Shown: piece by piece, positions 5,355-30,355 of the stretch
Layout of the letters: each line of letters begins with the position of its first letter
How positions within the stretch are numbered: position 1 is the first letter of the stretch
DNA from: Actinomycetota bacterium
Lineage (GTDB): Bacteria; Actinomycetota; Actinomycetes; S36-B12; UBA5976
Direction: 5' to 3'
DNA length: 64,000 bases
Assembly: GCA_947452765.1 (NCBI GenBank)
Contig: CANGDR010000001.1
Location: 194,657-258,656, forward strand
Notes under the pieces: generated by a model
Seen by the model: only the letters and a program-made list of their open reading frames with translations
Databases searched by the model: none
What the model was told of the DNA's origin: nothing
Translations under genes and position numbers: made by a program

Positions 5355-5629
5355 GCTGGTCTCTTTGGTTGATCGGTAAACGGTTTATAAGTTGGGCCAA
5401 ATTCATGGGTTATGGTGTTTCGCCAAACGTTAAACCAGCGCCGACAGCCAGCAGAATGTACCCAACGTTCGGCATGCCAGCCTTTTGGATTTTCTCTAAT
5501 GAAGACAAACTTCGACCATTCTTCATCAGTAGCACTTGCTGGTTCTGGATAAAAGATATTTGCGCCAGCGCCATAGTGAAATTCAGTTTCATCGCGTGGG
5601 CCACAGTAAGGGCATGGAATATTTAGCAT
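5351..5629 (-). CDS. soxD: Sarcosine oxidase delta subunit
   Basis: The 92 aa protein starts MLNIPCPYCGPRDETEF with a later HSAGCRRW (zinc-ribbon SoxD signature). An AGGAG RBS lies upstream. Confidence 0.9.
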   Translation of the reverse strand: MLNIPCPYCGPRDETEFHYGAGANIFYPEPASATDEEWSKFVFIRENPKGWHAERWVHSAGCRRWFNVWRNTITHEFGPTYKPFTDQPKRPA

Positions 5630-5638
5630 CTCAAACTC

Positions 5639-12522: not shown

Positions 12523-13550
12523 TAGTTAATGCCTCCACCGATCACGCGCAATACATCTTGTGCATTCACAACACCGACTGGATTATTCCCGTCAAGAACT
12601 GTGACCGAACCATCTGCAGCCAAAATGTGCTTTGTTGAGTCGCGGATAACTGTGCTCGAAGGCAAAGTTGTGGTGGATACTTTTTCATCTGCTCTTGCAG
12701 GTCTAGCAATGGTACGCAACGTCAGAACGTGTGACTTTGGCACATCGCGGGTAAATTCAGCCACATAATCGTCGGCAGGATTTGCTATCAAGTCTTCGGC
12801 TGTACCCATTTGAACGACGGCACCATCTCGCATAATTGCAATCCGATCACCCAGTTTTATGGCTTCATCTAAGTCGTGCGTAATAAAAATCATGGTCTTA
12901 CCAAGTTCTTGGTGCAAGCGAATAACCTCAGTTTGCATGTCGCGACGAATCAGGGGATCTAACGCGGAAAATGGTTCGTCTAGAAACATAACTTCTGGAT
13001 CAACTGCGAGGGCACGCGCTAGTCCGACTCGCTGCTGCATGCCGCCAGAAAGTTGTTCCGGAAATGCTTGCTCGAATCCCTCTAGGCCAACTAGTTCTAT
13101 TACTTCACGGGCGCGGGCATGGCGTTTATCTTTGGCAACTCCGTTGACTTCTAATGAGAATGCAATATTGTCGATGACCTTGCGATGCGGTAGTAATCCA
13201 AAATTTTGAAAGACCATTGAGAACTGGGTACGCCGTAATTCGCGCAGGCGTGATTCAGAAGCTTTTAGTACGTCCTCACCGTTCATCACAACGCTGCCAG
13301 CGGTAGGTTCAATCAATCTGGTTAAACAGCGCACCAAAGTTGATTTTCCAGATCCGGAAAGACCCATAACCACAAAAACTTCACCAGGTGCGACGTCGAA
13401 GGAAACTTCCCGAACTGCGGCCGTATTACCCGTCTTCTCCCGCAATTCAGCACGCGGAAGTGCAGCATCAGGGCTGTCGACGATTTTTTCAGGATTCGGT
13501 CCGAAGACTTGCCAGAGGTTACGAACTGAGATTGCGCTGGTGTTAGACAT
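12522..13550 (-). CDS. proV: Betaine ABC transporter ATP-binding protein with C-terminal CBS pair
   Basis: Walker [10 protein letters not shown], signature [14 protein letters not shown] and Walker [12 protein letters not shown] are present, followed by a CBS-like tail. The real start is probably ATG 13550 ([15 protein letters not shown] 8 nt upstream). The ORF-track N-terminus (to 13781) overlaps betB and is rejected. Confidence 0.88.
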
Positions 13551-15048
13551 TTTCATGACCCTCCGTTGCTTTAAACCAATCTGATCTTGCGGGTTTTTGG
13601 TTCTGCCAGATGTGTTTGTGTTCCAGGTATTCTGCAAATCCAGCTTCGCCAAGTTCGCGCCCAATCCCAGATTGCTTAAAACCACCCCATTCTGCTTGTG
13701 CCACGTAGGGGTGGTAGTCGTTAATCCAAATTGTGCCGTGCCGTAATTGTCGCGCAACGCGCTGTGCTTTGTCTGCGTCATTTGTCCATACGGCTCCGGC
13801 TAAGCCAAAAATAGTGTCATTTCCAAGTTTGATGGCTTCTTCTTCGGTGTCGAATACCTCAACTGTCACAACTGGCCCGAAAGATTCGTCCTGAACGCAA
13901 CTCATCTCAGACGTACATTCATCTAACACTGTTGGTCGGTAGAAAAAGCCATTCGCATATTTTTCACCTTCTGGCCGTTTTCCACCGGCCCGCAACACTG
14001 CACCTTCAGAAATTGCATCAGCAACATAGCGCTCAACTTTGTCGCGATGAGCAGCGCTTATTAATGCTCCAGTTTCAGCATCCAGATCATGCGAACCGCC
14101 CAGTCGAATCTGGTCAGCTCGGCGCGCAATTTCAGTTACTACTTGGTTATGAATCTTGCGCTCAACAAGTAAGCGCGCACCAGCTGAGCAAACCTGGCCA
14201 GAATGTAGGAATACTGCAGTTAGCGCATTATCTATGGCTGCATCTAAGTCAGCATCAGCAAAAATAATATTTGGATTCTTACCACCAAGTTCGAGTGCGA
14301 CCCTCTTGATGGTTTCAGCCGCATTAACCATCAATCGTTTTCCAGTTGCCAAACTTCCGGTAAATGAAACCATGTCCACGCCTGGGTGGGTGCTAAGTGG
14401 ACCGCCGGCGACGGCGCCAGAGCCAAGAACCAAGTTTGCAACACCAGCTGGTACGCCTGCTTCGCTCAGTACGTCCATCAACATCGAGGTAGTGGATGGC
14501 GTCAGTTCGCTTGGCTTGATTACAAATGTGCAGCCTGCCGCTAGCGCTGGCGCAATCTTCCAGGAAGCCTGAAGTAGGGGATAGTTCCAAGGCGTGATCA
14601 TTGCTATTACGCCAACTGGTTCGCTAACCATAGTGCTTCGAATATTTTCTCGACCAGTAGTTACTTCGCGCTCATGGGAAAGTGTTGCCCGTGTCGCAAA
14701 ATAGCGGAACACCGAAATAATATCGTCCATGTCGTAGTTAGCTTCAATAATTCTTTTGGCGGTATCGGCAGATTCAGCTTCTGCGAAGCGAGCCTTATCT
14801 CGTTCAAGAATGTCTGCAACTTGCTCCAAGATTTTGCCGCGTTGTTCGCCGGAGAATGATCGCCAATGACCCGAGTCGAATGCCGACCGTGCAGCGTCAA
14901 TTGCAGCGACCGTGTCAGATGCACTACCTTCATGGAAAATTGCAACTAAGTGTCCGTCGGCTGGGTGAAGTACATTTCGGATCTCGCCCGAGGAACTGCC
15001 AACACGTTCGCCGCCAATAAACAGTTCAGTTATCTTTTCGTATGCCAT
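13543..15048 (-). CDS. betB: Betaine-aldehyde dehydrogenase (NAD-dependent aldehyde dehydrogenase family)
   Basis: The 501 aa protein has the ALDH motifs ELGGKNP and catalytic Cys in GQVCSAG. Its context with betA and the betaine transporter supports the BetB call. Confidence 0.85.
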
Positions 15049-15893: not shown

Positions 15894-17561
15894 TTAAAAG
15901 AGACCTACAACTTCGCCATTTTCCAATTTGATGCTGTTAGCGGCTGGAACCTTAGGCAAGCCAGGCATAGTCATAATGTCACCAGTAACGACCACGATGA
16001 ATTCAGCTCCAGCACTCAGTCGAATTTCCCGAATCGCAACAGTGTGACCGGAAGGTGCACCCTTGGCTGCTGGATCTGTTGAGAACGAGTACTGGGTCTT
16101 TGCGATACAGATTGGGAAGTGACCGTAGCCAGCATCTTCAAATACCTGGAACTGATCTTTGACACTCTTGTCAGCTACAACTTCAGCAGCGTCATAGATT
16201 TCGCTGGTGATGGTCGCGACCTTATCCCAAAGTGACATGGTGTCTGGATAGAGCGGCTTGAATGCAGCGGTGCCACCTTCAACAATTTCAACGACTTTAT
16301 TAGCAAGCTCAATTGTGCCCTTGCTACCTTCAGCCCAGTGCGTGCAGCGAATTGCGGCTACGCCCATCTCGGCACAGAACTTCTGGACTGCAGCAAATTC
16401 CGCATCAGTATCAGTTGTGAAGTTGTTAACGCCAACAACTACTGGAACTCCGAATTTCTGTACATTGCGAATGTGGCGACCAAGGTTGGAAAGGCCTGCT
16501 TCAACAGCAGCCACATTCTCTTTACCTAAATCATCTTTGGCAACGCCACCATGCATTTTTAACGCGCGAACTGTCGCCACAATCACTGCAGCATCAGGTG
16601 CTAACCCAGCTTTGCGGCATTTGATGTCAAAGAATTTCTCGGCACCTAAATCAGCACCAAATCCAGCTTCAGTAACTACGTAGTCACCGAGTCTTAGTGC
16701 CGTGTCAGTTGCAAGCACCGTGTTGCAACCATGTGCAATATTTGCGAACGGTCCACCGTGCACAAATGCAGGGTTATTCTCAAGTGTCTGAACCAAGTTA
16801 GGCATCAAGGCATCTTTTAGAAGTACGGTCATTGCACCGTTGGCATTTAGTTGAGCTGCTGTGATCGGCTTCTTATCGCGGGTGTATCCCACAACAATAT
16901 TTCCAAGGCGACGCTCTAGGTCATCTAGGTCCATGGCCAAACAAAAAATTGCCATAACTTCGCTAGCAACCGTGATATCGAAACCAGCTTCGCGTGGATA
17001 GCCATTACCTGGCCCACCTAACGCAGCTGTGATCTCGCGAAGTGCGCGATCATTCATATCTATTACGCGCTTCCAAGCAATTCGTCGTACGTCAATCTCT
17101 AGTTCGTTACCCCAATAGATGTGGTTATCCAACATTGCGGAAAGCAAGTTATGAGCCGCACCAATTGCATGGAAGTCACCGGTGAAGTGCAGGTTAATGT
17201 CTTCCATCGGAACTACTTGGGCAAAGCCGCCACCAGCAGCGCCACCCTTCATACCAAAGCAAGGTCCAAGTGATGGTTCGCGCAGACAGATGATGGCATT
17301 TTTGCCAATGGCGTTAAGTCCATCGCCAAGTCCAACAGTTGTCGTGGTTTTACCTTCACCAGCGGGAGTCGGAGTCATCGCAGTAACTAGGACTAACTTT
17401 CCGCGTGGCTTATTTTTCAGCGACGAGATGAAGTCCATATTGATTTTGGCTTTGGTCGGACCGTAGTTCAGAACCGCGTCCGCTGGTATACCGATTTTTC
17501 CTGCAACCGAAACGATTGATTCAGTAGTGGCTGCCCGAGCAATATCGATATCTGATTTCAT
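15894..17561 (-). CDS. fhs: Formate--tetrahydrofolate ligase
   Basis: The 555 aa protein has the P-loop [15 protein letters not shown] and is FTHFS-like throughout. It has an ATGA overlap with the upstream methyltransferase gene. Confidence 0.95.
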
Positions 17562-18997
17562 GCCAGTAACTCCTTCTTACGCTTGGCGACCCATTCGTCA
17601 AGCTCTTCCTTAATTGCTGCATCCATTGCAGGAGCTTCGTATTCACCAAGCATTTTATGCGCCATTTCATTGGCGCGAATGTCGGTGGTCTTGGAACCGT
17701 TGCGTGACCAGCGGTCGAAGTTGTCGGCAGATGACAGGAATGGCCGGTAGAAACAATCCCGGAATCGTTCCATAGTGTGCATTGTGCCTAAGAAGTGACC
17801 ACCGTGACCGGCTTCTTCATGCGAACCAAATGCAAGTGAGGCTTCGTCAATTTCGATCGGAGTGAATTCAGCTTGCATCATCTGCAGTAACTCAACATCC
17901 ATAACGAATTTTTCGTAACAGGCAACTAGGCCACCTTCGAGCCAGCCAGCGGTATGCATTACAAAGTTAGTGCCAGCCAGGAAGGTCGCATGCATTGTCA
18001 TCAAGGTTTGGTAACCAGCTTGGGCATCCATAGTTTGCGCTGCATTTAGACCGCCGCCACCACGGAACGGAAGTCCAAAGTGCCGTGCAATTTGTCCAGT
18101 GCAGAGTAGGCCCATTGCGGATTCTGGCGTGCCAAACATTGGCGAGCCAGACTGCATGTCAATGTTTGAAAGGAAGGATCCGAATACAACAGGGCAACCT
18201 GGACGAACTAGCTGAGCTAATGCGATGCCGCTTAATGCTTCCGCAATTTGCTGCACAAGTGATGCTGGAATTGTTACTGGGCTCATTGCGCCCATCAACA
18301 AGAACGGCGTTAGTACGCACGGTTGACCGGCTTCGCTGTATTCAAATAGTGACTCGAGCATGCGATCATCCCAACGCAAAGGGGAGTTGCAGTTAATCAA
18401 GGAAATGATTGCAGGAGTTTTTTCTATGTTTGCGCGGCCGCCGAATACGATCTCGGTCATCTTGATCGTGTCTCGGGCATTTAGTCCTGTAACAACGTTG
18501 CCCATATAGACCTTGTCGCTCAGGGTTTGGCAGGAATAGATCATGTCAATGTGACGGGTATCCAAGTCAGCATCATTTGGTTCTACAACTACCGAGCTTG
18601 CCACATCTAGATCAGTAAACATGTGGGTAAGTTTTGTGAGATTTCTGAAGTCTTCCAAAGTTCCATCGCGACGTACCCCAAGGTCACGAACGAACGGAGG
18701 GCCGTAAACGCCACCGAAAACCATATTGTCGCCACCAATGATGACGTTGTTCTCTGGGTTGCGAGCTTGTAGCGTGAATTCGCTTGGCGCCTGAGCAACT
18801 TGTTCCAAAATCCAGTCTGGATCGAACTTCACGTTGTTGCCTTCAACTTTTTGACCAGCTGCACGGAATAAATCCAGCGCGCGCTCGTGCATGAATTCGA
18901 CTCCCATTTCGGAAACGATGCGGCGCCATCCCTTATCAAGGACTGCCATGGCGTCCTTTGAAAGGATTTCGTACCGCGGGCTCTTGTTCTGGAACAT
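17558..18997 (-). CDS. MttB-superfamily (non-pyrrolysine) quaternary-amine:corrinoid methyltransferase, MtgB-like
   Basis: The 479 aa protein has trimethylamine-methyltransferase-family sequence over its full length ([43 protein letters not shown]). The reading frame is uninterrupted, with no in-frame TAG. Confidence 0.85.
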
Positions 18998-19208
18998 GTC
19001 CGGCTCCTGGCTCGTGGGTCACCTAATTAGGTAACGGCTCTAGTTACTCTGCCAAAGACTTGGGCAAATTAGTTGCCAAATCACTTGACGAATGGCTATG
19101 ACAATACCGTACTATGTGGAACATAGGTTCCAGATTATGAAAAATTATTTGGGGCTTCGAAGGTAAAAGAAAGTGCAGTTATTTCACTGTCTATATAAAG
19201 GAGGCGAG

Positions 19209-19964
19209 ATGGAAGAAAAGCCAGTTACTGGAACCCAATCCATTGATCGCGCCTGCGACCTATTAATTCGCGTTTTAAACAGTGACGATCCCCAGACCTT
19301 GAGCGAACTAGTTTCAGTAACTGGCTTGGCGAAGGGAACTACGGCAAGAATTCTTAGCGCTTTAGAGCGATCTGGCTTATTGGGCCGTAGCCCGATCGGC
19401 GGGTTTGAAGCTGGACCAGTTCTTAATCAGTTCGCAGTTCGAGGTGGCGCTTACACCGCACTAATTGGATCTTTGACTCCAGCTATGGAACGAATTGCCG
19501 ACATTACCCACGAAACAGTGAGTTTGGCGGTAACTGGGCACAACGGCATCGACAACATTGCGCAAGTCGAAGGCTCATATTTATTAGGAAGTCGCAACTG
19601 GGTTGGCGAAAGTGTCCCGGCTCACTGTTCAGCAGCTGGAAAAGTTTTGATTGCATTTGGAGCCGCGTCTGCGCCCGCCACGTTAGTGCCACGCACAGTC
19701 GAGACGATCACAGATTTTGCGGTACTAGATGCCCAGATCCGACGGGCGCACGAAGTTGGATTCGCAGTAATTCGAAATGAACTTGAACAAGGTTTGGTTT
19801 CGATCTCAATTCCAGTATTAGGGGATAATGGGAAAGCGATTGCTGCTTTGTCAGTTAGTGGCCCGGCTGAAAGAATTACCCCTGGCGATGAAATTCACAT
19901 CGCACAATTAATGCGTCGCGAGCTAAGCCAATTTCACGGCACACAACAAGAAGGAGCGGCATGA
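19209..19964 (+). CDS. IclR-family transcriptional regulator (second copy)
   Basis: The protein has wHTH and IclR effector domains. The start is taken at ATG 19209 behind an AGGAGG RBS; the ORF-track start is 19173. Confidence 0.85.
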   Translation: MEEKPVTGTQSIDRACDLLIRVLNSDDPQTLSELVSVTGLAKGTTARILSALERSGLLGRSPIGGFEAGPVLNQFAVRGGAYTALIGSLTPAMERIADITHETVSLAVTGHNGIDNIAQVEGSYLLGSRNWVGESVPAHCSAAGKVLIAFGAASAPATLVPRTVETITDFAVLDAQIRRAHEVGFAVIRNELEQGLVSISIPVLGDNGKAIAALSVSGPAERITPGDEIHIAQLMRRELSQFHGTQQEGAA

Positions 19965-20617
19965 CACCCGACGAAATTCTGACGGAACTGTACGAACGAA
20001 CCATGGAAGGTAATGCTCCTCGGGTACTTGAGCTAACCAAAATGGGACTCGAACTCGACATGACTCCGGATTCGATCTTGTTCGAGGCCCTGATTCCTTC
20101 CTTAGAAGAAGTTGGTGCCCGGTTCGAGCGGGGTGACTACTTCGTTCCTGAAATGCTTATTGCCGGTCGCGCGATGAGTGGCGCATTGGATGTCCTGCGC
20201 CCGCTCCTTGCTGATACTGGCGCCGAAACAGTTGGAACGTTCCTAATGGGAACTGTCAAGGGCGATGTGCATGACATTGGCAAGAACTTGGTGAACATCA
20301 TGCTCGAAGGTGCCGGCTTCCAAGTTATCGACCTTGGCGTACAAACTCCGCCTGAAAAATTCATTGATGCAATTAAGGAACACCAACCAGATGTTGTTGG
20401 TATGTCTGCATTCCTAACTACAACTATGCCGATGTTCAAGGTGAACATTCACGAAATCACCAAGGCTGGTATGCGCGACGACGTAATTATCATGGTCGGC
20501 GGTGCTCCGGTTACCCAGGAATACGCAGACGTAGTTGGCGCAGATGGTTATGCCGCCGATGCCTCCACTGCCGTTCGTAAAGCTAAGGAACTAATCGCAA
20601 TTAAGCGTGCTAAGTAA
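19961..20617 (+). CDS. Cobalamin-binding corrinoid protein (B12-binding_2 cap plus Rossmann B12 domain), MtgC/MtbC-like
   Basis: The 218 aa protein carries the DxHxxG base-off/His-on motif as GDVHDIGKN, followed by MSAFLTTTM and GGAPV. It has an ATGA overlap with iclR. Confidence 0.88.
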   Translation: MTPDEILTELYERTMEGNAPRVLELTKMGLELDMTPDSILFEALIPSLEEVGARFERGDYFVPEMLIAGRAMSGALDVLRPLLADTGAETVGTFLMGTVKGDVHDIGKNLVNIMLEGAGFQVIDLGVQTPPEKFIDAIKEHQPDVVGMSAFLTTTMPMFKVNIHEITKAGMRDDVIIMVGGAPVTQEYADVVGADGYAADASTAVRKAKELIAIKRAK

Positions 20618-20625
20618 CAAACTTC

Positions 20626-21009
20626 ATGACCACTTTCATTGCAACCGTAGAACACTTAGTCAAGGGACCTGTTTGGGGCTGCCAAGACTGTGGGCAATGC
20701 GTACTTCATTCGACCGGGATGACTTGTCCGATGAATTGCCCAAAGACTTTGCGTAATGGTCCTTGTGGCGGCGTGCGTGAAAACGGTAACTGTGAAGTAA
20801 AACCAGAAATGCAATGTGTTTGGTTGAAGGCGTATGACCGTACCGAGAACTGGCCACTGCCCAAGACTTGGAAAGCTGAATACAACCACCTAAGACCACC
20901 GGTTGATAATCGGCTCAAGGGAACTTCATCGTGGAAAAACTTTTTTACAAAGCGGGATCGCTGGACTCCAGCGGGCTGGGCTAAGTCCACCGACGAGGCT
21001 GGGCACTGA
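20626..21009 (+). CDS. Methylene-THF reductase C-terminal-domain protein (MetV-like, Cys-rich)
   Basis: The 127 aa protein has the Cys cluster CQDCGQCVLHSTGMTCPMNCPKTLRNGPCGG, characteristic of the small MetV partner of MetF in acetogens. Confidence 0.75.
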   Translation: MTTFIATVEHLVKGPVWGCQDCGQCVLHSTGMTCPMNCPKTLRNGPCGGVRENGNCEVKPEMQCVWLKAYDRTENWPLPKTWKAEYNHLRPPVDNRLKGTSSWKNFFTKRDRWTPAGWAKSTDEAGH

Positions 21010-21920
21010 TGTCAACGCTGGAACATAAGTTAACCAACACAACTGAAATGGTGTTCACTGCCGAATTTCATTCACTCGATGGAAACGGATTAGAAAAAGC
21101 TAAGAAGTATGCCGATCGCTTCCAAGGTTGGTTTGATGGGGTAAACGCAACCGACAATACGGCCGCACATGCACACGCCTCCAATGTGGCAACTGCAATT
21201 GCGATTAAGCAATTAGGTCTTGAGCCGATTATGCAAATTGTTTGCCGAGATAAAAATCGTTTGGCGCAGCAAGCAGACATCATGGGTGCTTCGATGTTTG
21301 GCGTAGAAAACTTTGTGGCACTTACTGGCGACGATGTAACTGCTGGTGATGAACCAGAAGCTCGTCGGGTATTTGATCTAGATGGCCCACAACTCGTTCG
21401 CCTCATGAGCACGCTCAAGCACGGCGAGTACATGTCGGGTCGAAAGATTGACCCAGCCCCACAGATGTTTATTGGAGCGGTAGAAAACCCAGCAGCGCCG
21501 CCATTTGAATACCGGGTTGAGCGCGTAGCAAAGAAATATGCAGCAGGCGCAAAGTTTCTGCAACTTCAGATTTGCTATCACCAAGACCGATTAGAGAAGT
21601 TTTGTGCTGGTGTAAAAAGCGCTGGATTGGCAGGCAAGATCGCAATCATTCCCACCGTGGTTTTAGTAAAGGGCCCCCGACCATTGCACTTTATGCATAA
21701 TTCGGTGCCAGGTATCGACGTTCCTGAAGATCAAATTGCCCGCGTGGAAAAGGCAGCTGATCCATCCGAGGCTGCCTACCTACAAACCCTCGAATTTGCC
21801 CGACACGCGCTGGACCAGCCAGGCGTGCGAGGATTGCACATAACGGATTTTAGAAATGATGAAACCTTGGAACGTCTCATGTCTGACCTGGGCCGGGTTC
21901 GCCAAGCGGTAACTACCTAA
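21009..21920 (+). CDS. metF: Methylenetetrahydrofolate reductase (MetF-like TIM barrel)
   Basis: The 303 aa MTHFR-family protein has a TGATG junction with the MetV-like gene. Confidence 0.8.
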   Translation: MSTLEHKLTNTTEMVFTAEFHSLDGNGLEKAKKYADRFQGWFDGVNATDNTAAHAHASNVATAIAIKQLGLEPIMQIVCRDKNRLAQQADIMGASMFGVENFVALTGDDVTAGDEPEARRVFDLDGPQLVRLMSTLKHGEYMSGRKIDPAPQMFIGAVENPAAPPFEYRVERVAKKYAAGAKFLQLQICYHQDRLEKFCAGVKSAGLAGKIAIIPTVVLVKGPRPLHFMHNSVPGIDVPEDQIARVEKAADPSEAAYLQTLEFARHALDQPGVRGLHITDFRNDETLERLMSDLGRVRQAVTT

Positions 21921-21950: not shown

Positions 21951-22802
21951 ATGCATACAGTAGTAAGTTCTGCCACCAAGACCGTTACGATCGGCCACGA
22001 TCAGCCGTTTGTGATTATTGGCGAGCGCCTTAACCCAACTGGTCGCAAACTCTTCCAAGAAAAGCTTCGGGCAGACGATCTTTCAACCATCGAAAAAGAT
22101 GTAGCAGACCAGGTCGCTGGCGGGTGCGACATGTTGGACGTAAACATGGGCGTGCCATTAACTGATGAACCAGCATTGCTTGCCAAAGCAGTCCAGCTAG
22201 TTCAATCTCTAACTGACTTACCAATCTGTATTGACTCTTCGGTTATCGAAGCCCTTGATGCAGGTCTGGCAGTCTATGAAGGTAAAGCTCTGGTTAACTC
22301 GATGACTGGCGAAGATGAGCGCATGGATTTAATCCTGCCGCTTGTTAAAAAGTACGACGCTGCAATTCTTGCGCTGCCAAATGATGAAATTGAAATTCCA
22401 ATGCTCGCCAAAGATCGAATGGTGATCGTTGAAAAGATTGTGCGTCGCGTTGAAAAAGAAGGCATTCCACTGGAAAACCTTTTAATCGATCCGTTAGCTA
22501 TGCCTGTTGGCGCCGATCCGGAAAACGTCAAGAATACTTTGGAAACTATTTACCAGATCAAAGAGAAGTACGGCTTAAACATGTCGCTGGGTGCTTCGAA
22601 CGTTTCGTTCGGTTTACCTAACCGTCACATCCTTAATGCAGCATTTATGCCGATGGCTATGGCGATGGGACTAACTTCGGCAATCATGGATGGCCGTACC
22701 CCAGAAGTCGTGCAAGCCGTTCGTGCCGCTGATCTCTTGCTTGGCCTAGACCAGTGGGGCGCTAACTGGATTACCCAGTTCCGCGCATCAAAAGAAGCAT
22801 AA
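21951..22802 (+). CDS. Methyltetrahydrofolate:corrinoid methyltransferase (pterin-binding domain, MtgA/AcsE-like)
   Basis: The 283 aa protein has a pterin-binding barrel (IIGERLNPTGRK, MLDVNMG, GASNVSFGLPNR). Confidence 0.8.
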   Translation: MHTVVSSATKTVTIGHDQPFVIIGERLNPTGRKLFQEKLRADDLSTIEKDVADQVAGGCDMLDVNMGVPLTDEPALLAKAVQLVQSLTDLPICIDSSVIEALDAGLAVYEGKALVNSMTGEDERMDLILPLVKKYDAAILALPNDEIEIPMLAKDRMVIVEKIVRRVEKEGIPLENLLIDPLAMPVGADPENVKNTLETIYQIKEKYGLNMSLGASNVSFGLPNRHILNAAFMPMAMAMGLTSAIMDGRTPEVVQAVRAADLLLGLDQWGANWITQFRASKEA

Positions 22803-22833: not shown

Positions 22834-24702
22834 GTGTCAAAAGATGTAACCGACTCGACCGAATCCACAGTCAGTGGACTCGGCCGAGTTAATCTGCAAT
22901 TCACGCCTAGTGGAACTGAAGTTCGGGTACCGCCCGGCGTAACAGTTTTTGATGCAGCATCTTGGAATGGTTTAGCGATTGACTCAACTTGCGGTGGCCA
23001 TGGAACTTGTAAGAAGTGCAAGATCCAGGTTGTCGAAGGTGAAGTTCCAGTTTCGCGATTAGACATTCGTGCATTCACACCTGAGCAACTAAAAGATGGC
23101 TGGCGCCTGGCATGTGTGGCTCGGGCAAACGGAAATCTTAAAGTCGATGTCCCACCACTCGCTACTCGGCCAAAAGCTGCAACAGTGGGAGTGGGCCGCC
23201 AAGTTATTCTGCGCCCAGCAGTGCAAAAGCGTTATGTCGAACTTGTAGAACCAACTTTGCATGACCAACGTCCTGATATTGATCGCATCCGCGATGCCAT
23301 GGACGACTTAGAGTTCGAAGCAGACCTATCAGTGCTGAAAACCTTGCCAACTATCATGCGCAAAAGCGATTTCAAGGTAACTGCCGTAGTAGTAAACGAA
23401 GCATTGATTGCAGTTGAGGCAGGGGATACCACTGCTGAAAACTTTGCAATTGCAATCGACCTAGGAACCACAACAGTGGTAGCAACACTGTTGGATCTTG
23501 GCACTGGAACGCCGATGGCTGTTAAGTCAATGCTAAACAAGCAGCAACCATTTGGTGCTGACGTTATCTCGCGGATCTCGGCCACGATGATGGATCCATT
23601 AGCTGCAGGACTAATGCAAACTGCAGGCTTGGCCACCATTAACGAACTAATTGCTGAAGTGTGTACCGAAGCAAAGGTATCGGCTAACCAGGTTTACGAA
23701 ATCGCAATTGCGGGAAATGCCACGATGGTTGAGATCTTGCTTGGCGTTGATCCAGAGCCAGTCGGTGTTGCACCATTTATTACTGCTGCCCAGAAGTGGC
23801 CAACATTTACTGCAGCCGAAGTCGGATTAGAAATGTTGCCGAGTGCTCGCGTCTTCCTATTCCCAGCCTTTGGAGCTTATGTAGGCGGCGACATCGTTGC
23901 AGGTGTGTTGGCAACTGGAATGGATCGCGATAAGCGAGTCCGCCTTCTAATTGACGTCGGTACAAACTGTGAAATTGTTCTTTCTAGTGGTGACACAATT
24001 TTGACGACAGCGGCCCCGGCTGGACCTGCCTTCGAAGCAGCTTCGATTGCCTGCGGAATGCGAGCAGCTGATGGTGCAATTGAAGTTGTCCAAGTTACCG
24101 ATGAAGGAATCAAATTAGGCGTTATCGGCGATGCAGAACCGATTGGAATTTGTGGCTCTGGCTTAGTAGATGCCGTTTACGTATTGCATCAAGCAGGATT
24201 AATTGACGATTCTGGTCGCTTCGCTACCGATGAACAAGCCGCAGTTATCGCACCACATATTTCGGATCGGTTGATTACTCGCGAAGCAGGTGATCGAGCG
24301 TTCGTGTTGTACAGCAAGGATGGCGAAGTAGTTGTCCACTTATCTCAGCGGGATGTGCGGGAACTTCAGTTTGCGAAGGCTTCGATCGCTACTGGGTGGC
24401 GACTACTCCTTGAAGAGCAAGGCTTAACCGATGATGATGTTCAACAAGTTCTGCTTGCCGGGTCCTTTGGTTCCTATTTGTCACCAAAGTCAGCAATTGG
24501 AATTGGCTTAGTGCCAAAGCTTCCGGTTTTGCGAATTGTGAGTGCCGGAAACGTAGCAGGCGAGGGCGCCAAAATGGTCCTGCTCTCCAGCACTGAACGA
24601 AGCGGCGCGACAACTTTGCTTGATGAAGTTGATTACGTAGAACTTTCTGATCGCCCAGACTTTAACGACAAGTTTTTCTTGGAGCTGGCGCTTCCATCAT
24701 GA
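22834..24702 (+). CDS. Corrinoid reductive activase (RamA/RACo-like: N-terminal 2Fe-2S ferredoxin plus ASKHA ATPase domain)
   Basis: The 622 aa protein has a plant-type ferredoxin motif CGGHGTCKKCKI. A DUF4445/ASKHA body follows (AIDLGTTTV, DVGTNCE, GICGSG). The start is GTG. Confidence 0.8.
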   Translation: MSKDVTDSTESTVSGLGRVNLQFTPSGTEVRVPPGVTVFDAASWNGLAIDSTCGGHGTCKKCKIQVVEGEVPVSRLDIRAFTPEQLKDGWRLACVARANGNLKVDVPPLATRPKAATVGVGRQVILRPAVQKRYVELVEPTLHDQRPDIDRIRDAMDDLEFEADLSVLKTLPTIMRKSDFKVTAVVVNEALIAVEAGDTTAENFAIAIDLGTTTVVATLLDLGTGTPMAVKSMLNKQQPFGADVISRISATMMDPLAAGLMQTAGLATINELIAEVCTEAKVSANQVYEIAIAGNATMVEILLGVDPEPVGVAPFITAAQKWPTFTAAEVGLEMLPSARVFLFPAFGAYVGGDIVAGVLATGMDRDKRVRLLIDVGTNCEIVLSSGDTILTTAAPAGPAFEAASIACGMRAADGAIEVVQVTDEGIKLGVIGDAEPIGICGSGLVDAVYVLHQAGLIDDSGRFATDEQAAVIAPHISDRLITREAGDRAFVLYSKDGEVVVHLSQRDVRELQFAKASIATGWRLLLEEQGLTDDDVQQVLLAGSFGSYLSPKSAIGIGLVPKLPVLRIVSAGNVAGEGAKMVLLSSTERSGATTLLDEVDYVELSDRPDFNDKFFLELALPS

Positions 24703-25289
24703 GCCTGGCTGTGATTGCATGTGGCGCGCTTTCGGCCCACGTTCACGAGATTGCGGATCGCAATCATCTGGAGCTACATGTTGAACCAATCAATCCGCTC
24801 TTGCACAATCGTCCCGAAGGAATCGCACCAGCCGTAGAAGAACTAATCCTGGAACTCCAGCCAAATTATGATCACATTGCTATTGCATATGCAGATTGCG
24901 GCACCTACGGGGCACTCGATGTAGTTTGCGAGAAGTATCAAGTTTCCCGACTGGCGGGCGATCATTGCTACGACGTATTTGCAACTGCCGAAAAAATGAA
25001 AGCCGAATTCGAAAAGGTTCCGGGCACCTACGTGCTAACGGATTACTTAGTTAAAAGTTTTCGCCGGAGCGTAATGAACGAAATGGGCCTAGATCGTTAT
25101 CCAGAATTACGCGATGACTATTTCCATGCCTATAAGAGAATTCTCTGGCTAGCCCAGCATCAAACCCCTGAACTTGAGGAAGCGGCCAAGGATGCAGCGT
25201 CCTTAATTGATTTACCGCTAGAAATCATTAATGTGGGAGATAAGCACTTAGAGGAACAGTTAATGGTTTTGATCGGGAGCACGAAATGA
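24699..25289 (+). CDS. DUF1638-domain protein (unknown function, recurrently linked to corrinoid methyltransferase systems)
   Basis: The 196 aa protein is recognised by family recollection of its sequence (IACGALSAHV, YADCGTYGALD). It has ATGA overlaps on both sides, with the activase and with fdsG. Confidence 0.65.
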   Translation: MSLAVIACGALSAHVHEIADRNHLELHVEPINPLLHNRPEGIAPAVEELILELQPNYDHIAIAYADCGTYGALDVVCEKYQVSRLAGDHCYDVFATAEKMKAEFEKVPGTYVLTDYLVKSFRRSVMNEMGLDRYPELRDDYFHAYKRILWLAQHQTPELEEAAKDAASLIDLPLEIINVGDKHLEEQLMVLIGSTK

Positions 25290-25747
25290 GCAATTACTCC
25301 GAAGAATCCATACTTAACTATTTAGGACCTTACAAAGGTGATACCTCAACTATCTTGAGATCGCTGCAATTAATCCAAGAACTATTAGGTTATGTGCCGG
25401 ACAGCGCACTTGATTTAGTTGCCAAAAACAGCGGTGTCTCGCGCGCTGAGGTCTATGGCGTATTTACTTTCTATAGTGATTTTCGCTCGACACCGCCGGC
25501 AAAAGCCGTTGTTAAGGTGTGCGTAGCCGAAGCCTGCCAAGCATCCGGAAATGCCGAATTGATATCGGGTCTCCATGACCACGGGTATGACATCCATAAC
25601 GGCAGTGTTAAAGATGACATTCAAATGGAGCAAACTTTCTGCTTAGGCAACTGCGCCCTAGGACCGTCGGTCATGGTAAATGGGGCTCCAATGGGCCGGG
25701 CAACCTGCGACAAAGTTTTAGCTGCAGCAAAGGCAGCATCGGTATGA
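25286..25747 (+). CDS. fdsG: Formate dehydrogenase gamma subunit (NuoE-like 2Fe-2S)
   Basis: The 153 aa protein has a thioredoxin-like 2Fe-2S fold with C..C....C..C spacing (VCVAEACQ, FCLGNCALGP). Confidence 0.8.
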   Translation: MSNYSEESILNYLGPYKGDTSTILRSLQLIQELLGYVPDSALDLVAKNSGVSRAEVYGVFTFYSDFRSTPPAKAVVKVCVAEACQASGNAELISGLHDHGYDIHNGSVKDDIQMEQTFCLGNCALGPSVMVNGAPMGRATCDKVLAAAKAASV

Positions 25748-27288
25748 CAAAAGTATTCATCCCTCGGGATTCCGCAGCGCTATCTGTCGGAGCCGATGAA
25801 GTTGCTGCGAAAATTATTAAAATCGCAGCCAAGCAAGGGCTAGATGTGACGGTTGTTAGAACTGGCTCGCGCGGCATGTTATTTCTAGAGCCACTTATGG
25901 AGGTTGAAACTGCTGCTGGTCGGATTGGGTACGCGAATGTAACTCCAGAAATGGTCGAAGATCTACTTGCTGCAGGTGCATTAAGTGGCGCATCCCATGC
26001 GTCAACCATCGGCCAAGTTGAAAGTCACGAATACTTCGCCCGCCAAAACCGAATCACTTTCGCCCGGGTTGGAATCATAGATCCAATTTCGATAACTGAT
26101 TATGAAGCACATGGCGGGTTAGCTGGCTTAAGAAATGCTCTTGCGAAAACACCGGAATCTATTGTCGAAGAAGTTACCGAATCTGGACTTCGCGGTCGCG
26201 GCGGAGCAGGTTTTCCAGCTGGAATAAAATGGAAGACCGTTTTACTGGCAACCTCAGATCAAAAATACATTTGCTGCAATGCGGATGAAGGCGACAGCGG
26301 AACATTTGCAGATCGCATGCTGATGGAGGGTGATCCATTCACCTTGATAGAAGGCATGATTATTGCTGGCATAGCCGTTGGTGCGACAAAAGGTTTGATT
26401 TATGTCCGATCCGAATACCCACATGCGATTTCAATTTTTAACGAAGCAATTGCGGTTGCTAATTCTTCTGGATTATTAGGTTCATCTGTCCTTGGTTCGG
26501 CTCATGAATTCAATCTAGAAGTTCGAGTTGGCGCCGGATCATATGTTTGTGGCGAAGAAACTGCGATGTTGGAAAGTTTGGAAGGTAAGCGTGGCATGGT
26601 TCGCGCCAAGCCACCGATTCCTGCGTTAGTTGGCTTGTTCGGTAAGCCAACTGTCATTAACAATGTGATGACGCTGGCTGCTGTGCCAATGATTTTGGCG
26701 CAAGGGGCTGCTGCCTATCAATCGCTAGGGCATGAGCGATCGCGAGGAACTCAAGTTTTCCAACTTGCCGGCAACATAAAGCAAGGCGGAATTGTGGAGC
26801 TTGCATTCGGAACCACGCTCGGCGAACTAGTTGATGGCTTTGGCGGCGGCACATTGTCCGGCCGCCCAGTAAAGACAGTTCAAATCGGCGGCCCGCTTGG
26901 GGCATACCTAGGTAAGTCAGACTGGAATGTCCCAATGGCTTATGAGTCCTTGGCTGAGGTCGGTGGCATGCTTGGTCACGGCGGCATTGTGGTCTTTGAT
27001 GACACAGTAAATATGGCCAAACAAGCCCGTTTTGCTATGGAATTCTGTGCCGAGGAATCCTGCGGCAAGTGCACGCCATGTCGAATTGGATCAACTCGCG
27101 GGGTCGAAGTCATTGACCGAATCGTTGCCGGCGAGGAACAATCAAAGAACCTAGAACTGCTTTCAGATCTTTGCGATGTGATGGCTGATGGTTCGCTGTG
27201 TGCCATGGGTGGATTAACTCCACTACCAGTACGAAGCGCCTTGAAGCTGTTTCCTGCAGACTTCGGAATCTCGGTAGGAGTTAAGTAA
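25744..27288 (+). CDS. fdsB: Formate dehydrogenase beta subunit (NuoF-like NAD/FMN/4Fe-4S)
   Basis: The 514 aa protein has GLRGRGGAGFPAG (FMN site), CNADEGDSGTF and ESCGKCTPCR (4Fe-4S). Confidence 0.88.
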   Translation: MTKVFIPRDSAALSVGADEVAAKIIKIAAKQGLDVTVVRTGSRGMLFLEPLMEVETAAGRIGYANVTPEMVEDLLAAGALSGASHASTIGQVESHEYFARQNRITFARVGIIDPISITDYEAHGGLAGLRNALAKTPESIVEEVTESGLRGRGGAGFPAGIKWKTVLLATSDQKYICCNADEGDSGTFADRMLMEGDPFTLIEGMIIAGIAVGATKGLIYVRSEYPHAISIFNEAIAVANSSGLLGSSVLGSAHEFNLEVRVGAGSYVCGEETAMLESLEGKRGMVRAKPPIPALVGLFGKPTVINNVMTLAAVPMILAQGAAAYQSLGHERSRGTQVFQLAGNIKQGGIVELAFGTTLGELVDGFGGGTLSGRPVKTVQIGGPLGAYLGKSDWNVPMAYESLAEVGGMLGHGGIVVFDDTVNMAKQARFAMEFCAEESCGKCTPCRIGSTRGVEVIDRIVAGEEQSKNLELLSDLCDVMADGSLCAMGGLTPLPVRSALKLFPADFGISVGVK

Positions 27289-30137
27289 TGACATTGCTTG
27301 CAGATCCACGCGGCACGATGCCGATTCGTTCCGGCATTGGCGAACCTGATTATGGAACTCCTAAGTCCAGCTCCCAAGTAATGGTTACGGTCACCATCGA
27401 CGGTGAGGCACATGTAGTCCCTGAAGGTACTTCAGTAATGCGAGCCGCTGGCGAAGCAGGCTGTTCAATACCAAAACTTTGTGCGACCGATTCGCTCCAG
27501 CCATTTGGCTCATGTCGCATGTGCATCGTCGAAATCGATGGACGAAAGGGAACTCCAGCTTCTTGCACAACTCCGGTGGAGGAGGGAATGGTAGTTCGCA
27601 CCCAGACCGAGAAAGTTGCCAAACTTCGCAAAGGTGTGATGGAACTTTATATTTCCGACCATCCATTGGACTGCTTAACGTGTTCAGCTAATGGCGATTG
27701 CGAACTGCAAGACATGGCGGGTGTGGCTGGGCTGCGTGAGGTCCGTTATGGCATGGACGGCAAGAATCACCTCGATGCACCGACCGATTCATCTAATCCA
27801 TATTTTTCATTCGATGAGAGCAAATGCATTGTCTGTAATCGCTGCGTTCGCGCGTGTGATGAAGTACAAGGAACTCTCGCGCTAACCATTGAAGGCCGTG
27901 GCTTTAATTCGAAAGTAAGTCCAGGTGGGTTGAATTTCCTTTCAAGTGAATGTGTTTCGTGTGGCGCCTGTGTTCAGGCTTGTCCGACCGCAACTTTGCA
28001 AGAAAAGAGTGTCATTGATTTAGGTATGCCAACTCGCACCGTGCAAACCACTTGTGCATATTGCGGTGTTGGTTGCTCATTTAATGCCGAACTTCGTGGC
28101 GATGAACTTGTCCGTATGGTGCCTGCTAAAACTGGTGGCGCCAACGAAGGTCATAGTTGTGTGAAAGGCCGCTTTGCTTGGGGTTATGCCTCGCACTCAG
28201 AACGAATCACCAAGCCAATGATGCGCGAAAAAATTACTGATGAATGGCGTGAAGTTTCGTGGGATGAAGCAATTGAGTTTACTGCTTCCAAGCTAAAGGA
28301 AATCCAACTGCAATACGGTGACAACAGCATTGGTGGAATTTCGTCATCAAGATGCACCAATGAGGAAATCTTTGTTGTCCAAAAAATGGTTAGAGCCGCC
28401 TTTGGAAATAACAATATTGATACGTGTGCTCGCGTTTGCCACTCGCCAACTGGATATGGTTTGAGCACTACATACGGCACTTCGGCTGGCACGCAAGATT
28501 TTAAGTCGGTGGCAAAGTCAGATGTGATAGTTGTGATTGGCGCAAATCCAACAGATGCCCACCCAGTGTTTGCTTCTCGCATGAAGCGCCGGATTCGTGA
28601 AGGCGCACAACTGATCATTATTGATCCGCGCAAGATTGATCTGGTGGAATCCGCACACATTAAGGCTGACTACCACCTGCAATTGCAGCCAGGCACAAAT
28701 GTTGCTGTGATAAACGCAATCGCACATGTAATTGCAACCGAGGGTTTGATTGACGAAGTGTTCGTTTCAGAGCGCTGCGATCCAGGGCCATTTAATCGCT
28801 GGCGAAAATTTATCGAACTTCCAGAAAACAGCCCAGAAGTTGTTGAGTCCCAGTCTGGCGTTCCAGCCGAAACTATTCGCCAGGCAGCTCGGCTGTATGC
28901 AGCTGGAAATAACGCTGCTATCTACTACGGCCTTGGTGTAACTGAGCACTCGCAAGGTTCAACCATGGTTATGGGTATGGCAAACCTTGCAATGGCTACT
29001 GGAAATATCGGCCGCGAAGGTGTGGGTATCAACCCATTGCGTGGCCAAAATAATGTGCAGGGTGCCTGTGACATGGGATCGTTCCCGCATGAACTTTCTG
29101 GTTACCGACATGTTTCTGATAACGCCGTGCGTGAGCAATTTGAAGCGCTTTGGGATGTAAAGCTGCTACCGGATCCTGGCATGAGAATTCCAAATATGTT
29201 CGACAATGCGATCTCCGGAGAATTCCGTGGATTGTTTGTGCATGGCGAAGACATCGCGCAATCCGATCCAAACACCAAGCACGTTGAAAAGTCCCTTAAG
29301 TCGATGGACTTAGTTGTCGTACAGGACCTATTCCTAAACGAAACCTCTAAGTTTGCACACGTATTCCTGCCTGGCACTTCCTTCCTGGAAAAGGATGGAA
29401 CGTTCACCAATGCGGAACGTCGTATCAATCGCGTGCGACCAGTTATGGCGGCTAAGAACGGCAAGCAAGAGTGGCAAATCATCTGTGAAATTGCACAAGC
29501 AATGGGTTATGACATGCATTACGAAAATTCTGCTCAAATCATGGATGAGATTGCGCAAATTACACCGACATTCAAAGGTATTAGTTTTGCAATGCTCGAT
29601 GAAGTTGGCAGCGTGCAGTGGCCATGTAATGACGCCGCTCCTGACGGTACGCCAATCATGCACGTAGATGGTTTTGTTCGGGGACAAGGACAGTTCATGG
29701 AGACACCGTTTGTCCCAACCGAAGAACGGTCAAATCGTAAGTTCCCGCTATTGCTGACAACTGGACGTATCTTGACTCAATACAACGTTGGCGCCCAGAC
29801 TCGCAGAACAGCAAATGTAACCTGGCATCCCGAAGATGTTTTGGAGATTCACGAGTCAGATGCAGCGTTACGTGGCATTTCAGATGGTCAGAAGATCGCG
29901 GTATCAAGTCGAATTGGCGAAACAATTTTAACTGCAGAAGTAAGTGATCGAGTGCCTGCTGGAGTGGTCCACACCACGTTCCACCATCCAACTAGTGGTG
30001 CAAATGTAATCACGACGGAGTTTTCAGACTGGGCAACTAACTGTCCGGAATTCAAAGTGACTGCAGTGGAAATCCGCCCAGCTGACTCGAGCGCAGCGCC
30101 AACAAATACCCTCGAATCAGTATTGACCAAGGCTTAA
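27288..30137 (+). CDS. fdsA: Formate dehydrogenase alpha subunit (molybdopterin, Cys active site)
   Basis: The 949 aa protein has N-terminal 2Fe-2S/4Fe-4S motifs (CRMCIVE, CIVCNRCVRAC, CVSCGACVQACP, CAYCGVGC). The Mo-bisPGD domain has TCARVCHSPTG where Sec enzymes carry U, so this is a Cys-type enzyme. Confidence 0.92.
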   Translation: MTLLADPRGTMPIRSGIGEPDYGTPKSSSQVMVTVTIDGEAHVVPEGTSVMRAAGEAGCSIPKLCATDSLQPFGSCRMCIVEIDGRKGTPASCTTPVEEGMVVRTQTEKVAKLRKGVMELYISDHPLDCLTCSANGDCELQDMAGVAGLREVRYGMDGKNHLDAPTDSSNPYFSFDESKCIVCNRCVRACDEVQGTLALTIEGRGFNSKVSPGGLNFLSSECVSCGACVQACPTATLQEKSVIDLGMPTRTVQTTCAYCGVGCSFNAELRGDELVRMVPAKTGGANEGHSCVKGRFAWGYASHSERITKPMMREKITDEWREVSWDEAIEFTASKLKEIQLQYGDNSIGGISSSRCTNEEIFVVQKMVRAAFGNNNIDTCARVCHSPTGYGLSTTYGTSAGTQDFKSVAKSDVIVVIGANPTDAHPVFASRMKRRIREGAQLIIIDPRKIDLVESAHIKADYHLQLQPGTNVAVINAIAHVIATEGLIDEVFVSERCDPGPFNRWRKFIELPENSPEVVESQSGVPAETIRQAARLYAAGNNAAIYYGLGVTEHSQGSTMVMGMANLAMATGNIGREGVGINPLRGQNNVQGACDMGSFPHELSGYRHVSDNAVREQFEALWDVKLLPDPGMRIPNMFDNAISGEFRGLFVHGEDIAQSDPNTKHVEKSLKSMDLVVVQDLFLNETSKFAHVFLPGTSFLEKDGTFTNAERRINRVRPVMAAKNGKQEWQIICEIAQAMGYDMHYENSAQIMDEIAQITPTFKGISFAMLDEVGSVQWPCNDAAPDGTPIMHVDGFVRGQGQFMETPFVPTEERSNRKFPLLLTTGRILTQYNVGAQTRRTANVTWHPEDVLEIHESDAALRGISDGQKIAVSSRIGETILTAEVSDRVPAGVVHTTFHHPTSGANVITTEFSDWATNCPEFKVTAVEIRPADSSAAPTNTLESVLTKA

Positions 30138-30139
30138 CT

Positions 30140-30355
30140 GTGGATATTAAGATTCTCACTCACATGGTTGAACAAATTGAAAAGAATATCCCAGCTCACG
30201 AAGAGCAGTACTTGCGAATCTCTGAGCATTTAATTAAGTTTTGGACGCCACAAATGCGTACTGACTTATTTCAGGAAGTAAAAGAAAATCGACAGAACTA
30301 CAGCGAAGTTGTAGGACAAGTTGTCGACGATATGCGAGCAAAAGCTAAGGCTTAG
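30140..30355 (+). CDS. fdsD: Formate dehydrogenase delta subunit
   Basis: The 71 aa protein has a GTG start 2 nt after the fdsA stop and an FdsD-like HLIKFWTPQMR motif. Confidence 0.7.
   Translation: MDIKILTHMVEQIEKNIPAHEEQYLRISEHLIKFWTPQMRTDLFQEVKENRQNYSEVVGQVVDDMRAKAKA

Follow-up and report, generated by a model that had tools for sequence, protein, structure and literature searches.

A DUF1638 gene coupled to a RamA-like corrinoid activase in a glycine-betaine-type catabolic island of a freshwater actinobacterium

DUF1638 in described systems and in the actinobacterial window

A cobalamin-dependent demethylation of glycine betaine has recently been put forward as a major route among aerobic bacteria of aquatic habitats, and it depends on cobalamin being kept in the oxygen-sensitive Co(I) state. 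The closest described systems are proteobacterial. In Phaeobacter inhibens, a DUF1638 mutant is an auxotroph rescued by methionine, and its fitness correlates with that of a three-piece split B12-dependent methionine synthase (MetH) and of a RamA-like gene, with which DUF1638 also shares its phylogenetic profile; no specific function was proposed for the protein (Price et al. 2018, PMC5764234). In Ruegeria pomeroyi, glycine betaine demethylation and methionine synthesis share their MtgC and MtgD modules, and RamA and DUF1638 become more abundant on N-osmolytes, DUF1638 on glycine betaine among them, and are drawn as a reductive recharging module (Mausz et al. 2025, PMC12478193). Here we analysed a stretch of 64,000 nucleotides (nt) of contig CANGDR010000001.1 from an Actinomycetota bacterium, hereafter the window, in which a DUF1638 gene lies between the gene of a RamA/RACo-like corrinoid reductive activase (RamA) and fdsG of a formate dehydrogenase (Table 1). 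We consider it probable that this gene is orthologous to those of the DUF1638 accessory protein in these Proteobacteria (PGA1_c13340 in P. inhibens, SPO2162 in R. pomeroyi), and that its product works with a RamA/RACo-type activase. An earlier note, made from the sequence of the window, had described DUF1638 as lacking an assigned function, which is true of Pfam, but its partnership with the activase is not new (PMC5764234, PMC12478193); the link is already published and the window gene adds another member.

The open reading frame of 196 codons was confirmed with an ATG start, and, as the earlier note had described, it overlaps both neighbours by 4 nt: the ATGA at 24699-24702 joins the stop of the RamA-like gene to the DUF1638 start, and the ATGA at 25286-25289 joins the fdsG start to the DUF1638 stop. 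Shine-Dalgarno-like sequences stand 14 nt before the DUF1638 ATG (GGAG) and 7 nt before the fdsG ATG (GGGAG). The proposed family assignment held in the profile search, in which PF07796 matched residues 33-186 (E 3.4e-25) and scored 89.2 bits, the cutoff being 27, and no NCBIfam model matched the protein. At E<=1e-3 and a clustering level of 50% identity, the family runs to about 1,127 clusters. As the Pfam alignment starts at about residue 33, it leaves out the first strand and helix (residues 1-32, window 24699-24797) with the near-invariant Cys8-Gly9-Ala10, and the PF07796 domain boundary appears too short at its N-terminus.

PGA1_c13340 and SPO2162 belong to the same Pfam family as the window protein, which is about 36-45% identical to proteobacterial members and shares with them the residues conserved in the family. 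The neighbourhoods are alike in content, with a corrinoid protein, a methyl-tetrahydrofolate methyltransferase, MetF/MetV, a RamA-like activase and an MttB-family methyltransferase, but differ in order, DUF1638 following RamA in the window and MtgC in Proteobacteria. The window also differs in having no PF13769 partner gene, in uniting the module with fdsGBAD in one operon, and in belonging to a freshwater actinobacterium rather than to marine or soil Proteobacteria. Compared with the MtgBCD/split methionine synthase system, for which the same need of RamA and DUF1638 for cobalamin re-reduction has been proposed (PMC12478193), the window holds the same modules, but its MttB homologue is a putative betaine methyltransferase, no mtgE (homocysteine methyltransferase) gene is present, and the host is actinobacterial.

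The window activase has the architecture of RACo, RamA and the O-demethylase activating enzymes of anaerobes, namely an N-terminal [2Fe-2S] Fer2 domain, RACo linker and middle regions and an ASKHA C-terminal domain, and ATP-driven uphill reduction of Co(II) is therefore expected of it; it scores 429 bits, under the cutoff, against the AcsV-like model NF040756. In vitro, anaerobe activases of the RamA/RACo type need nothing beyond ATP and an artificial reductant and are described as active without DUF1638. Relative to them DUF1638 would be an extra component, in host lineages that are, by name, mostly aerobic.

Gene neighbourhoods of DUF1638

A scan of genome contigs with the lone DUF1638 protein returned only close Nanopelagicales relatives, and the breadth of the comparison comes from a metagenome scan and contig look-ups. 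The actinobacterial metagenomic set added 80 loci with 46-81% identity, and adjacency was counted only in loci with room for the neighbour. Synteny extends over the entire operon in 19 genome loci of Nanopelagicales (acI clade). RamA lies directly upstream on the same strand in 67 of the 69 loci with room (19/19 acI-type and 48/50 other actinobacterial), and the modal junction between the two genes is a 4-nt overlap (37 loci), found again in distant lineages. The translational coupling of DUF1638 to RamA is tight.

Outside the Actinomycetota, the proteobacterial loci compared (a Rhodocyclaceae metagenome-assembled genome (MAG), a Gammaproteobacteria MAG, contig L101, S. meliloti and Paracoccus methylovorus) have the order MtgC-DUF1638-(PF13769)-MetV-MetF-methyltransferase-RamA, and an MttB gene lies close by. 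At the far end of the sampled divergence is a subgroup with 31-39% identity, whose members include Dormibacteraeota and Thermoleophilia by name. In the locus L107 the DUF1638 gene overlaps both the RamA and the corrinoid-protein genes, and since MtaB-like and URO-D-like methyltransferases stand there instead of MttB (Table 1), the module would also serve methanol- or O-demethylase-type systems. Across several phyla, and regardless of the methyl donor, DUF1638 tracks the activase and corrinoid protein but not formate dehydrogenase. The recurrence in corrinoid methyltransferase clusters that the earlier note had mentioned is found in Actinomycetota, Proteobacteria, Dormibacteraeota-type and MtaB/URO-D-type operons, and the co-occurrence with the activase that it had suggested counting is borne out by the actinobacterial loci. 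These neighbourhoods support the view that the machinery of corrinoid reductive activation has DUF1638 as a conserved partner.

The earlier note had read the position of the gene as a sign of an obligate stoichiometric partner; the overlaps by themselves were rejected as evidence for this. Of the 37 same-strand junctions of the window, 13 involve an overlap of some kind and 6 one of exactly 4 nt, among them IclR/MtgC, MttB/FTHFS and FdsG/FdsB; overlaps are routine here, and an overlap alone is therefore no sign of stoichiometric partnership. A promoter and terminator scan of the operon was uninformative, its matches being rarer than in shuffled sequence.

As for formate dehydrogenase, fdsG lies directly downstream of DUF1638 on the same strand in 16 of the 16 acI-type loci with room; over the acI-type clade as a whole, the junction is an overlap of 8 nt (19 loci) or 4 nt (2 loci). 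Elsewhere this arrangement occurs in 1 of 57 loci (L018), formate dehydrogenase is convergent to DUF1638 in 4 of the 57, and the downstream genes vary (MTHFR-like 9/47, GcvT 6/47, DAO 4/47); in L100-L107, which cover the proteobacterial, Dormibacteraeota-type and MtaB-type operons, no formate dehydrogenase gene stands beside DUF1638. The earlier note had suggested counting co-occurrence with nuoE/nuoF-like genes; same-strand adjacency to fdsG was seen only in the acI-type clade and L018, and the adjacency is a lineage-specific operon arrangement of one freshwater lineage. The enzyme of the window is complete and canonical, with FdsG, FdsB, FdsA and FdsD and the maturation genes FdhD, MobA and MoeA. 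A role of DUF1638 as a subunit or maturation factor of formate dehydrogenase was rejected, given the confinement of the adjacency to the acI clade and an FdsGBAD set with no missing component. By pathway logic, formate dehydrogenase owes its place in the operon to catalysing the last step of methyl-group oxidation (methyl-tetrahydrofolate to CO2), and it is a pathway neighbour of DUF1638.

Candidate site and possible role of DUF1638

Conservation was computed over 57 and then 71 non-redundant full-length members. In the 71, the residues Cys8, His36, Pro39, Tyr64, Asp66-Cys67-Gly68-Thr69, Gly71, Asp74, Arg84, His89-Cys90-Tyr91, Thr114-Asp115, Pro135, Gln153 and Gly180 are 89-99% conserved, and the family-wide motifs ACGA, LHxxP, Y-x-DCGT-x-G, G-x-HCY and TD are all found in the window protein. 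The near-invariant Cys8/Cys67/Cys90, His36/His89 and Asp66 make up a new candidate site. An AlphaFold2 (AF2) model of the protein (predicted local distance difference test, pLDDT, 96.5; predicted template modelling score, pTM, 0.89) has six parallel-type strands alternating with helices in two small alpha/beta lobes, and nearly all conserved residues fall just after strand ends or at helix starts in this topology. Ligand sites of alpha/beta folds usually lie at strand ends. The conserved residues would accordingly mark a putative ligand cleft, in which the topology suggests that Cys8, Cys67 and Cys90 converge.

The model is confident and has no significant neighbour in the Protein Data Bank (PDB), which is also new. 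A profile search of PDB sequences gave nothing below E 0.07, and Foldseek gave no match at E<=1e-3 in PDB or BFVD, the best PDB hit having E 3.7e-3 and a template modelling (TM) score of at most 0.46. The weak matches are two-lobed cleft proteins, namely the PrpR N-terminal domain (2pju), glutamate racemase (1b73, TM 0.46) and arylmalonate decarboxylase (2vlb). In general architecture 2pju and 1b73 resemble DUF1638, each having a pair of small parallel alpha/beta lobes whose conserved residues lie at C-terminal strand ends, but with TM 0.42-0.46, a root-mean-square deviation of about 9 A and no sequence relationship, an Asp/Glu racemase-like or PrpR-N-like fold is not supported. The structure prediction and cofactor-site search proposed in the earlier note gave a confident model and a conserved Cys/His/Asp cluster but no canonical cofactor motif. 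The question of an Fe-S or metal centre stands between three near-invariant cysteines and two histidines on one side and the lack of a CxxC-type motif and of a matching fold on the other.

In the mechanism that we propose, DUF1638 and the ATP-dependent activase would maintain active Co(I) cobalamin on an MtgC-type corrinoid protein, or restore it to that form, within an MttB/MtgC/MtgA quaternary-amine:tetrahydrofolate methyltransferase system. From the conserved 4-nt overlap we suggest that DUF1638 may be made roughly 1:1 with RamA and act in a RamA-DUF1638-MtgC assembly, and its Cys/His cleft may bind a redox-active metal or Fe-S centre, or ligate cobalt directly. FdsGBAD would be the terminal methyl-oxidation step packed into the same operon of a streamlined genome, and not a dedicated source of reductant.

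Which part of reactivation DUF1638 might serve can be proposed only tentatively. We slightly favour a role in electron delivery, on the side of RamA, since no gene is coupled to DUF1638 more tightly or more widely than the RamA gene. Nearly as likely, though in itself doubtful, is a chaperone for cobalamin processing or loading, whose cleft would bind free or newly imported cobalamin through a Cys-thiolate or His, remove or exchange its upper ligand and hand it to apo-MtgC in the manner of human CblC/CblD, with no part in electron transfer. The proteobacterial gene order, with DUF1638 directly 3' of the corrinoid-protein gene, favours such a chaperone, as do the double overlap in L107 and the outward likeness of the predicted Cys/His/Asp-lined cleft to that of other proteins in which two lobes enclose a corrinoid, and the loss-of-function phenotype, being the same as that of corrinoid-protein loss, fits it equally well (PMC5764234). 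It is opposed by the closer coupling to RamA and by the absence of detectable similarity to CblC, CblD, BtuF or chelatases in sequence or fold. Moreover, E. coli MetH needs no loading chaperone.

Bolder versions of the electron-delivery role fare less well. We think it unlikely that DUF1638 is a previously unrecognised Cys3/His metal-, Fe-S- or cobalt-thiolate protein that forms a 1:1 complex with RamA, provides the physiological link for cob(II)alamin re-reduction in aerobes and is wired in acI to FdsGB, so that low-potential formate electrons would drive reactivation. The bridge drawn in the earlier note, in which DUF1638 is an adaptor or electron mediator that couples FdsGB, or formate oxidation, to RamA and so supplies the reductant for Co(II) to Co(I), seems still more improbable. 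Formate is indeed a low-potential donor from the same pathway, a redox centre could sit at the invariant Cys/His site, and the overlap with fdsG is kept throughout the acI-type clade; but the adjacency is absent from 56 of the 57 other loci with room and from the operons of the other phyla, FdsGBAD is complete and homologous complexes have been solved without a DUF1638 subunit, 4-nt overlaps are common in the operon, even between the regulator and mtgC, and the gene order can be explained without the bridge. Least probable of all, in our view, is an enzyme for a small molecule of C1, folate or osmolyte metabolism, such as a thiol-dependent isomerase or racemase-like enzyme, which would have only the operon in common with the corrinoid protein and the activase and would target neither. 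Its best arguments are the weak fold matches, which are two-lobed enzymes with cleft cysteines (1b73, 2vlb), and the many conserved polar residues at strand ends; none of these matches is significant, however, and the association survives the switch from MttB to MtaB/URO-D in L107 and also holds in the context of a split methionine synthase, where no osmolyte is involved (PMC5764234).

Several observations weigh against DUF1638 as a partner in corrinoid activation. One copy stands alone in an unrelated neighbourhood (L075), and another, at a contig end, adjoins a MetE-core-like methyltransferase and an IclR gene (L044). The proteobacterial gene adjoins MtgC and not RamA, and the Roseobacter genes of the module are dispersed (PMC12478193). 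Within the acI clade (L001-L020 compared with the window) DUF1638 is 80-84% identical, less conserved than RamA (89-92%), MtgC (93-97%) and MtgA (92-94%); FdsG/FdsB are at about 80-83% and FdsA at 90-94%. On the protein side, Pfam searches at E<=10 with six diverse members matched DUF1638 only and no Fer-type domain, no canonical Fe-S, flavin or NAD(P) motif was found in DUF1638, the fold has no structural precedent, and the geometry of the cysteines is deduced from topology. The in vitro behaviour of the anaerobe activases, which need only ATP and a reductant, implies that an extra protein is not chemically obligatory, and to our knowledge the DUF1638 family is biochemically uncharacterised.

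With these points in the balance, the locus extends the DUF1638-RamA module to abundant freshwater Actinomycetota and belongs to an association of DUF1638, RamA and corrinoid protein that holds across phyla and substrate methyltransferases. It explains neither the electron supply of RamA in aerobes nor why DUF1638 is genetically required, but it offers a confident model without structural precedent, along with three cysteines and two histidines, as concrete targets, and the function of DUF1638 is now a more testable question.

PF13769, the catabolic island and further features

A second recurrent partner of DUF1638, not recognised before, is PF13769 ('Virulence_fact', about 100 residues, with WRDIP and CG-x-DL motifs), whose gene lies directly 3' of DUF1638 and overlaps it in Proteobacteria and in a Dormibacteraeota MAG (Table 1). 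The window (1-64000) holds no copy, and nearly all actinobacterial loci are without one, the sole match being L033:10423-10929(-). The protein P0205 is a DUF1638-PF13769 fusion and the only fusion backed by independent gene adjacency. The PF13769 protein may be a further component of the DUF1638 module, and its single conserved cysteine could complement the three of DUF1638. Two other apparent fusions were set aside: P0133 (RACo_C and DUF1638, 645 residues) was called out of frame on a high-GC contig and carries an Arg/Ala-rich nonsense tail, and P0132 (DUF1638 and DAO) is a single case and probably a read-through into an adjacent demethylase gene.

The operon is part of a complete glycine-betaine-type catabolic island of about 33 kb (window 1215-33211) with two IclR regulators. 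It comprises an OpuA-type ABC transporter and an aldehyde dehydrogenase (betaine aldehyde dehydrogenase, BADH) for uptake and upstream steps, the MttB-family methyltransferase and the genes IclR-MtgC-MetV-MetF-MtgA-RamA-DUF1638 for quaternary amine demethylation, dimethylglycine dehydrogenase (DMGDH) and SoxB/A/G for further demethylation, FolD, formate-tetrahydrofolate ligase (FTHFS) and FdsG-FdsB-FdsA-FdsD for C1 oxidation, and MoeA, MobA and FdhD for maturation of the formate dehydrogenase. The MtgC-like corrinoid protein is presumed to be the substrate of the activase. The closest relatives are freshwater MAGs named Candidatus Nanopelagicales or Actinomycetes, and a literature search on a betaine island or operon in acI/Nanopelagicales found no relevant paper. 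In the work on R. pomeroyi, reactivation, C1-oxidation and downstream demethylation genes were often co-located in other taxa, and about 5% of marine mtgC reads were assigned to Actinomycetota (PMC12478193).

Table 1. Features of the window and of compared loci (coordinates without a locus name refer to the window)
Feature	Position	Strand	Evidence or gene order
DUF1638 protein, 196 residues	24699..25289	+	PF07796 89 bits; residue conservation; AF2 model pLDDT 96.5
RamA/RACo-like ATP-dependent corrinoid reductive activase	22834..24702	+	Pfam Fer2, RACo_linker, Raco_middle, RACo_C_ter
Corrinoid (B12-binding) protein, MtgC-like	19961..20617	+	B12-binding, B12-binding_2; MtgC/MtbC NCBIfam models best, below cutoff
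Methyl-corrinoid:tetrahydrofolate methyltransferase, MtgA/MtgD-like	21951..22802	+	Pterin_bind; NF005719 306 bits, cutoff 259
MttB-superfamily methyltransferase, MtgB-like (quaternary amine:corrinoid), divergent	17558..18997	-	PF06253 626 bits
MetV-like (DUF5981) and MetF-like methylene-tetrahydrofolate reductase pair, methyl-tetrahydrofolate oxidation	20626..21920	+	PF12225, PF02219
IclR-family regulator, first gene of the operon, 4-nt overlap with mtgC	19173..19964	+	IclR_C, HTH_IclR
NAD-dependent formate dehydrogenase FdsGBAD, whole set	25286..30355	+	Pfam/NCBIfam; synteny statistics
FdsG, FdsG-like 2Fe-2S_thioredx	25286-25747	+	Pfam
FdsB, NuoF-like	25744-27288	+	Pfam/NCBIfam
FdsA	27288-30137	+	TIGR01591 905 bits, cutoff 666
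FdsD, 71 residues, directly 3' of fdsA	30140-30355	+	PF11390 38 bits, cutoff 27
Formate-tetrahydrofolate ligase (FTHFS)	15894..17561	-	PF01268 880 bits
L105 (Dormibacteraeota-type)			MtgC-Pterin_bind-RamA-DUF1638-PF13769
L106			URO-D-MTHFR-Pterin_bind-RamA-DUF1638
L107	L107:3955-13362		URO-D-RamA-DUF1638-corrinoid protein; MtaB-like and several URO-D-like methyltransferases nearby, in place of MttB
PF13769 copies	L100:7675-7974; L101:7642-7986; L102:4380-4685; L103:11913-12215; L105:7578-7856

Three smaller observations concern gene boundaries in the island. The end of the FdsD gene overlaps the convergent moeA by 4 nt. The longest open reading frame of the OpuA ATPase, 12522-13781 (-), overlaps the aldehyde dehydrogenase gene, 13543-15048 (-), by 239 nt, and the true start of the ATPase gene probably lies further downstream. 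Between the SoxA-like and SoxB-like genes, a gap of 284 nt (5355-5638) could accommodate a candidate small soxD.

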